Shown here piece after piece: positions 46,574 through 47,767 of a stretch of DNA of 64,000 nucleotides (position 1 is the first letter of the stretch; each line of letters opens with the position of its first letter). The stretch lies in the NCBI RefSeq assembly GCF_030384885.1, contig NZ_CP128613.1, one strand, 5' to 3'. The stretch comes from Escherichia coli (GTDB lineage Bacteria > Pseudomonadota > Gammaproteobacteria > Enterobacterales > Enterobacteriaceae). A model generated the notes under the pieces. The model ran no database searches. It saw nothing but the letters and a program-made list of their open reading frames with translations, and was not told the origin of the DNA. Both the position numbers and the translations under genes were made by a program.

Positions 46574-47767
46574 TTAGAACTGGTAGACTAAGCCCACAGC
46601 AACGATATCATCGGTAGCGATGCCGTTTGCTTCGTAGAAGTCATCATCGTTGTCCAGCAGGTTAATTTTGTAATCAACATAGGTGGACATATTTTTGTTG
46701 AAGTAGTAGGTCGCACCGACTTCAACGTATTTAACCAGATCTTTGTTAGTGTAACGCGGGTCGCCGTTGCCGTCATGAGCCCAGCCGCCTAAATCCTTAC
46801 CTTTAGATTGCAGGTAAGCGATGGACGGGCGCAGGCCGAAGTCGAACTGATACTGAGCAACAACTTCAAAGTTTTGGGTTTTGTTAGCGATGGCTGATCT
46901 TGATTCACCATTATCAAACTCGCCACCACCATATGGGGTCATATTGCGAGTTTCAGCGTACATAGCTGCTAAATACACATTATTAGCATCATATTTTGCA
47001 CCAACAGTCCATGCTTCAGCGGTTTCACCACCAGCATTTCTGTTGCTATGGTTACGATCATTTAAACCAACTCCAACCTGGCGATCTGAGCGATCAGAGT
47101 TTGAATATGCAGCACCCAGACTTAAACCGAAGTCGAAGTCGTAGGATGTAGACATACCGAAACCATCACCATTTTCTTTGGAAAGGCTACGGCCATCACC
47201 ACTACCGGAACCTTCCTGCCCGAAGGGGCCACCACTTTCATTATTACCCTGATATTGCAGAGCAAAGTTCAGACCATCAACCTGACCAAAGAAGCCATTG
47301 TTACGGTAGGTTGCAACGCCGTTGGTACGACCGTTCATGAAATTGTCGGCACCAGCATAGGTATCACCACCAAATTCTGGCAGCATATCGGTCCATGCTT
47401 CGATATCATATACGACACCGTAGTTACGACCATAGTCGAAAGTACCATTCTGACCAAAACCTAAACCTGCGAATGCCAGACGGGTAGCAGAGTTATCGCC
47501 ATCGCCTTCTGTGCCATTTGCCTGCAGGTTGTATTCCCACTGACCGTAACCAGTGAATTGATCAGCGATCTGAGTTTCACCTTTGAAACCGATACGAGCA
47601 TATGACATATCGCCATCAGCGCCCGAGTTGTCAGAGAAGTAGTGCAGACCTGCTACTTTTCCGTAGAAATCCAGTTTATTACCATCTTTATTATAGACTT
47701 CAGCCGCATTTGCTGCGCCAGCAACTAATAACGCCGGGACCAGCATTGCCAGAACTTTTCTTTTCAT
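46574..47767 (-). CDS. yedS: OmpC/OmpF-family general porin (apparently intact YedS)
   Basis: Signal peptide [21 protein letters not shown], porin beta-strand pattern and C-terminal ..VGLVYQF; 397 aa from ATG 47767. Confidence 0.75.

Follow-up and report, generated by a model that had tools for sequence, protein, structure and literature searches.

The 64,000-nucleotide stretch of Escherichia coli DNA that was analysed (hereafter, the window) carries an intact copy of the porin gene yedS, and it is very probable that this copy is a functional-capable allele encoding an accessory general diffusion porin, the fourth or fifth of the species. The original prediction that the strain may express an extra general porin is a reasonable reading: in its ribosome binding site, the ~250 bp upstream of it and its signal peptide the gene agrees with other strains, no pore residue is lost, and the coding sequence bears the marks of purifying selection. 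In any case, the window strain is able to encode one more general porin. An accessory porin can admit carbapenems and cephalosporins once OmpC and OmpF are lost, and its own loss can add to resistance, according to the summaries of Warner et al. 2013 given in PMC4048246 and PMC11267920. Moreover, phages or colicins could use such a porin as their receptor, and it could act as a surface antigen.

The gene occupies 46574..47767 on the minus strand, with 397 codons followed by a TAA stop codon (46574..46576). The original prediction had placed an uninterrupted porin ORF at 46574-47767 without giving its strand; these coordinates proved exact, stop codon included, and both the ORF list and the translation show zero internal stops within the 397 codons. 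A mechanically produced ORF list extends the frame to 407 aa from an in-frame upstream ATG at 47797, yet the true start, as judged from the sequence context, is the ATG at 47767, because a Shine-Dalgarno-like AAGGGA (47775..47780, minus strand) is found 7 nt 5' of it, the first residues align with the OmpC and OmpN signal peptides and RefSeq uses the same start. This AAGGGA is identical in 7/7 aligned strains. The signal peptide of 21 residues (47705..47767, minus strand) matches those of OmpC and OmpN, and its cleavage is predicted before AEVYNK; at query residue 22, with which the mature YedS begins, AEVYNK coincides with residue 1 of the solved OmpC and OmpK36 chains. The frame had also been described as running from a signal peptide to a C-terminal Phe, and this was borne out by alignment with OmpC, OmpF and OmpN, at which the 21-residue signal peptide and the ...VGLVYQF end were both recognised. 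RefSeq annotates the same CDS with the same start in identical sequence (NZ_CP027579.1, C6996_RS02470), and the exact 397-aa protein is held in databases as WP_000824399.1 / A0A0J2EH56, recorded on 899 public contigs.

Naming of the gene as yedS is sustained by the synteny drpB - rseX - porin - hchA together with a nucleotide identity of 94.2% to the K-12 gene. In the window, the order of genes is hchA, yedS, rseX, then drpB (yedR), yedJ, dcm and vsr, and the arrangement in MG1655 is the same. The original prediction took yedS of K-12 to be a split pseudogene, and indeed MG1655 annotates a pseudogene, b4496, at the same locus. A global alignment of the K-12 gene with the window copy, proposed at the outset as a check, gave the 94.2% identity across 1,194 nt and opened only one gap, of 1 nt, and both K-12 lesions are absent from the window copy. 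The first lesion is a TAG at codon 162, where the window has CAG, and the second is a 1-nt deletion at ORF position 663; a nonsense codon and a frameshift therefore account for the three K-12 fragments (yedS_1/2/3). In addition to these lesions, K-12 yedS differs from the window copy by 69 substitutions that are clustered at nt 60-540. They are densest in nt 241-300, where there are 21, and the region of greatest difference in the protein alignment falls within this stretch. The upstream region, the ribosome binding site and the signal peptide of K-12 yedS are essentially those of the window copy.

Assignment to the OmpC family of porins, as predicted, was upheld by a full-length match to Pfam Porin_1, by the NCBIfam OmpC subfamily and by matches to solved porins. 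YedS covers the whole of the Pfam profile PF00267 (1-337 of 337; E = 5.9e-144, 480 bits against a cut-off of 23.7). It also scores 541.2 bits with the NCBIfam model NF007841 “porin OmpC”, above the cut-off of 484, although this is a subfamily model and not an equivalog, so that passing it does not make the gene ompC. Scores with the NCBIfam equivalog models fall below their cut-offs, both for OmpF (469 vs 583) and for PhoE (444 vs 599). The best match among solved structures is OmpK37 of Klebsiella pneumoniae (PDB 6v78; E = 1e-146) over the whole mature chain, followed by OmpK36, OmpC, OmpF and PhoE, and the identities to the K-12 paralogues are 69% for OmpN, 62% for OmpC and 57% for OmpF. In the constriction zone of OmpF, the acidic D113 and E117 on loop L3 face the basic K16, R42, R82 and R132. 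All six residues are kept in YedS, as shown by alignment with OmpF, OmpC and OmpN, their equivalents being K37, R58, R96 and R147 on the basic side and D127 and E131 on the acidic side. The L3 motif PEFGGD and the C-terminal VYQF are conserved as well. AlphaFold2, given an alignment of 11 sequences, returned a poor model (mean pLDDT 47.6) whose roughly 16-strand pattern is unreliable; the fold is for this reason assigned by sequence homology to solved porins, a homology which is overwhelming.

The coding sequence also carries a record of selection, and this record is the best argument that the gene is functional. The allele of strain 06-00048 differs from that of the window at 35 nucleotides, 35/35 of them synonymous, and the two proteins are therefore identical. 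Compared with six other intact alleles of the same YedS-like type (type A, described below), dN/dS is 0.12-0.17. These values place the YedS protein under strong purifying selection; a decaying gene would be expected to look otherwise.

An intact yedS is already known and ordinary, and it is common in wild E. coli. The finding is thus not a new one, because intact copies are common, the exact protein is found in databases and a functional YedS has been published. Among 5,426 complete E. coli genomes that were searched, 4,887 had a match and 1,660 a full-length one, and about half of the full-length alleles sampled from complete genomes were intact. An evenly spaced sample of full-length alleles contained 7 annotated as intact and 3 annotated as pseudogenes. 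A protein search returned thousands of full-length YedS relatives from E. coli and Shigella, under names such as “outer membrane protein yedS”, “outer membrane protein S1” and “outer membrane protein N”. As summarised in PMC4048246 and PMC11267920, Warner et al. 2013 (Antimicrob Agents Chemother 57:1935) found a translated, functional YedS that acts as a general porin and alters carbapenem susceptibility in a carbapenem-resistant clinical E. coli; in these summaries, their YedS is an intact and translated copy in a non-K-12 strain, the same phenomenon as the one proposed for the window. Pseudogenes of yedS arose independently. A related strain carries the frameshift without the nonsense codon, in O157:H7 FRIK2069 one nucleotide is deleted at another site, near position 606, and in other genomes the gene is broken by an IS1 insertion, or truncated by IS3 and a group II intron. 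With respect to yedS, K-12 is the exception rather than the rule.

The 3′ side of the window copy has been altered. Just past the stop codon, a hairpin, CAACACGCC-TCG-GCGTGTTAC (46548..46568, minus strand), is retained, without a T-run. An IS-bounded insertion of 4,861 bp (41665..46525, delimited by BLAST breakpoints and junction sequences) lies between yedS and hchA, where it begins at CTAG, 48 bp past the yedS stop. The insertion has taken the place of ~37 bp that elsewhere make up a canonical intrinsic terminator, AGCCTGAGTTCG-TCCCTCAT-CGAACTCAGGCT-TTTTTT, which is present in K-12, M3, UTAK-1 and ECONIH5; K-12 yedS thus keeps its downstream terminator, whereas the window copy has lost it through the insertion. 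Since the native terminator is gone, yedS transcripts must end elsewhere. From the sequence, this loss could lower the stability of the mRNA, and it should not abolish its synthesis. The insertion is found at the yedS locus in only 14/5,426 complete E. coli genomes. Within it, we have identified an IS5-family transposase pseudogene at about 45700..46519 (called by IS annotation, the insertion having Pfam DDE/DUF4096 matches), IS4-like fragments at 44858..45678 and an IS3-like fragment at about 41719..42163. It also holds, on the plus strand, an orphan ORF of 465 aa (42806..44203, 35% G+C) accompanied by a 100-aa ORF (42238..42540). The RefSeq version of the orphan ORF uses a downstream start and has 458 aa (WP_000255418.1). 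Searches of Pfam, NCBIfam, PADLOC and PDB sequences with the 465-aa ORF gave no match. A copy of this ORF, about 89% identical, adjoins uhpA in O55:H7 and O157:H7 genomes.

Other readings of the gene have to be weighed against that of an intact yedS. The PGAP annotation names the window gene “ompC: porin OmpC”, a label given because the NCBIfam OmpC subfamily cut-off is passed, and if this were correct the gene would be the main osmoporin rather than an extra porin. However, ompC of K-12 (b2215) lies ~280 kb away, adjoining micF and rcsD, while the window gene stands at the yedS locus; moreover, its protein is 62% identical to K-12 OmpC vs 69% to OmpN, and its DNA is 94% identical to yedS. The ompC identity was rejected on the synteny (the gene is not beside micF and rcsD) and the 62% amino-acid identity, and we consider it very improbable. 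The same “ompC: porin OmpC” label was met in every sampled genome that has a type-A or an EC5502-type allele; alleles of types B and C, which are shorter, are labelled just “porin”. Such an “ompC” mislabel could mislead automated porin-loss calls in resistance genomics. Even less credible, as the origin of the intact frame, is an error of sequencing or assembly, or a pseudogene of the K-12 type that has recently reverted. A second, independent complete genome has the same DNA, the identical protein is on those 899 contigs, and the window copy differs from the K-12 allele at 69 other positions, so that it is an allele in its own right rather than a K-12 copy that has been repaired.

It may also be argued that the ORF is intact and the gene nonetheless effectively dead, being silenced or destabilised after the loss of its terminator and thus a pseudogene in the making. 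Although the replacement of the terminator by the 4.86-kb insertion would suit this explanation, as would the independent pseudogenisation of yedS in other lineages (K-12, O157:H7, and those with IS1 or with IS3 and a group II intron), the promoter, the ribosome binding site, the signal peptide and all codons are untouched, and terminator loss rarely abolishes expression. In island-bearing genomes with alleles at least 99% identical to that of the window, the porin CDS is annotated (a statement at annotation level), and the coding sequence displays no relaxed constraint, with 35/35 differences being synonymous. We regard a dead gene as unlikely, and favour an intact allele capable of function.

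The upstream regulatory region of yedS, from the rseX terminator to the yedS ATG (47768..48078, minus strand), has a G+C content of 27.7%, and its ~250 bp proximal to the ATG are nearly invariant among the strains aligned. A weak sigma-70-like site, TTGTTA-16-TAAAAT (47888..47861, minus strand), is located ~94 nt 5' of the ATG. A scan of 46450..48350 for sigma-70 promoters returned 5 sites vs 5.5 expected by chance, and as the scan is not above chance this site is a candidate at most. Directly 5' of yedS, as in K-12, is the gene of the Hfq-binding sRNA RseX (48079..48168, minus strand; Rfam RF01401, 99.8 bits vs a gathering threshold of 50), which is complete with its terminator hairpin at 48104..48084. 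It has been reported that H-NS represses rseX, with StpA as a back-up (PMC8313858), and that rseX was found with drpB as a multicopy suppressor (PMC8313858, PMC7648144). The sequence of the yedS upstream region looks H-NS-silenced. Nevertheless, a transcript of K-12 yedS can be measured, and induction of sigma-E lowers it 2.5-fold (PMC2731931). In vitro, a CRP footprint upstream of K-12 yedS was mapped at 2033766 (PMC12871828); its counterpart in the window is TGTGCGCGCGATCACA at 48050..48065 (minus strand), where both half-sites are kept and the spacer is unlike that of K-12.

Pairing of small RNAs with the yedS leader was examined by a crude approach, in which the RNAduplex energy of whole molecules was compared with that of mononucleotide shuffles of the target region. 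The positive controls behaved as they should (MicF-ompF z = -1.9; MicC-ompC z = -3.2). With the yedS leader, this crude comparison gave no pairing signal for MicF (z = +0.25) or RseX (z = -0.14), and MicC was borderline by the same measure (z = -1.65). Warner and colleagues are said to have reported control of YedS by MicF and MarA; this control by MicF finds no support here, because the MicF-yedS pairing is no better than that of shuffles, although a test as crude as this one is no refutation of it.

If the gene is expressed, what is known of the family would predict that the precursor is exported by Sec via its 21-residue signal peptide, and that BAM, guided by the C-terminal beta-signal (...VYQF), would insert it into the outer membrane as a trimeric 16-stranded beta-barrel. 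Each pore would be narrowed by loop L3 (PEFGGD) opposite the basic cluster, and would let small hydrophilic solutes, beta-lactams and carbapenems among them, diffuse passively through it. Expression in ordinary culture is probably poor, with the AT-rich upstream region silenced by an H-NS-type mechanism, and the role of the porin in permeability may be limited to particular conditions or to the loss of OmpC and OmpF. By analogy, YedS is probably one of the quiescent porins, expressed conditionally.

Comparison of the window (46574..48078) with the drpB-hchA interval of other E. coli genomes revealed that the slot drpB-rseX-[porin]-hchA is variable in the porin that it holds. The first 23 residues are invariant in 11 alleles of the slot, whereas the mature porins range from 352 to 404 aa and share 53-70% identity between allele types. 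The alleles were separated into at least three deep types: type A, YedS-like, to which the window allele belongs, type B of 357-371 aa, and type C, the Nissle type of 352 aa. Type A, the OmpN/OmpK37-like YedS, is found in the window strain, K-12 and O157, while the best structural relatives of type C (Nissle 1917) are OmpK35, PhoE and OmpF rather than OmpK37 and OmpC. The window protein and the Nissle allele are 53% identical; for OmpC and OmpF this figure is 59%. The slot also holds an intermediate type, and the identities between these porins of different clades are 53-56%, a distance comparable to that of OmpC from OmpF. Even among type-A alleles, dS reaches 0.38-0.61, which is far above typical E. 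coli core-gene divergence. No description of this variable-slot pattern was found in the literature searched; the intergenic region between yedS and yedR has served as a marker of host source (PMC11267920). Perhaps, with roughly even chances, the slot is a “porin cassette” locus on which balancing or diversifying selection has acted over the long term, and the window allele is one state of this polymorphism. A near-invariant ~250-bp regulatory region and an identical signal peptide would then drive porins of different clades, with frequent loss by independent mutations, and pressure from phages, colicins or antibodies could plausibly maintain the variety of a normally silent porin.

Taken as a whole, the window is identical to none of the complete genomes searched. 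Over the right 25 kb it departs from strain 2013C-4282 by 0-1 mismatches, whereas this strain is without a 22.4-kb island found in the left part of the window and has ~7.1 kb that are missing from it. The island (11884..34278) is located at the 3′ end of tRNA-Ser(CGA) (11794..11883) and is bounded by a 14-bp direct repeat, CCCTCTCTCCGCCA, which is repeated at 34279..34292. Its best matches in complete E. coli genomes have 82% coverage and 94.8% identity, and the annotations in these matches include a MobQ relaxase, a PilV shufflon adhesin, a tyrosine recombinase and a SIR2-family protein. Because of these annotations in the best-matching genomes, we read the island as probably being an integrative mobilisable element that may carry a defence gene. 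The deletion of ~7.1 kb relative to 2013C-4282 lies at about 5279..5283 of the window, with a junction of 5-bp overlap; what is missing begins midway through a 7,989-bp gene for an Ig-like-domain protein, takes in a LysR regulator and a cysteine hydrolase, and ends in the hypE/hypF region.

Among known porins, OmpC and OmpF resemble YedS in family, expected architecture, constriction residues, the PEFGGD motif and the C-terminal beta-signal; they differ from it in locus and presumably also in regulation. OmpN is the nearest of the three K-12 paralogues compared (OmpC, OmpF and OmpN), at 69% identity, yet its precursor has 377 aa vs 397 aa in YedS, the segments of YedS being longer at the alignment gaps. 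The loci of E. coli OmpN and of OmpK37 are different from that of yedS. OmpN, OmpK37 and OmpS1 of Salmonella are weakly expressed “quiescent” porins, and OmpS1 is repressed by H-NS and activated by LeuO and OmpR. YedS is similar to OmpS1 in the length of its precursor and in its AT-rich, silenced-looking upstream region, and the two are equated by names in the literature and in databases; in fact, “yedS (ompS1)” has been listed as an equivalent (PMC2731931). The AT-rich upstream region of yedS and its H-NS/StpA-repressed neighbour rseX (PMC8313858) are suggestive of the regulation of quiescent porins, with which, by analogy, they would fit.
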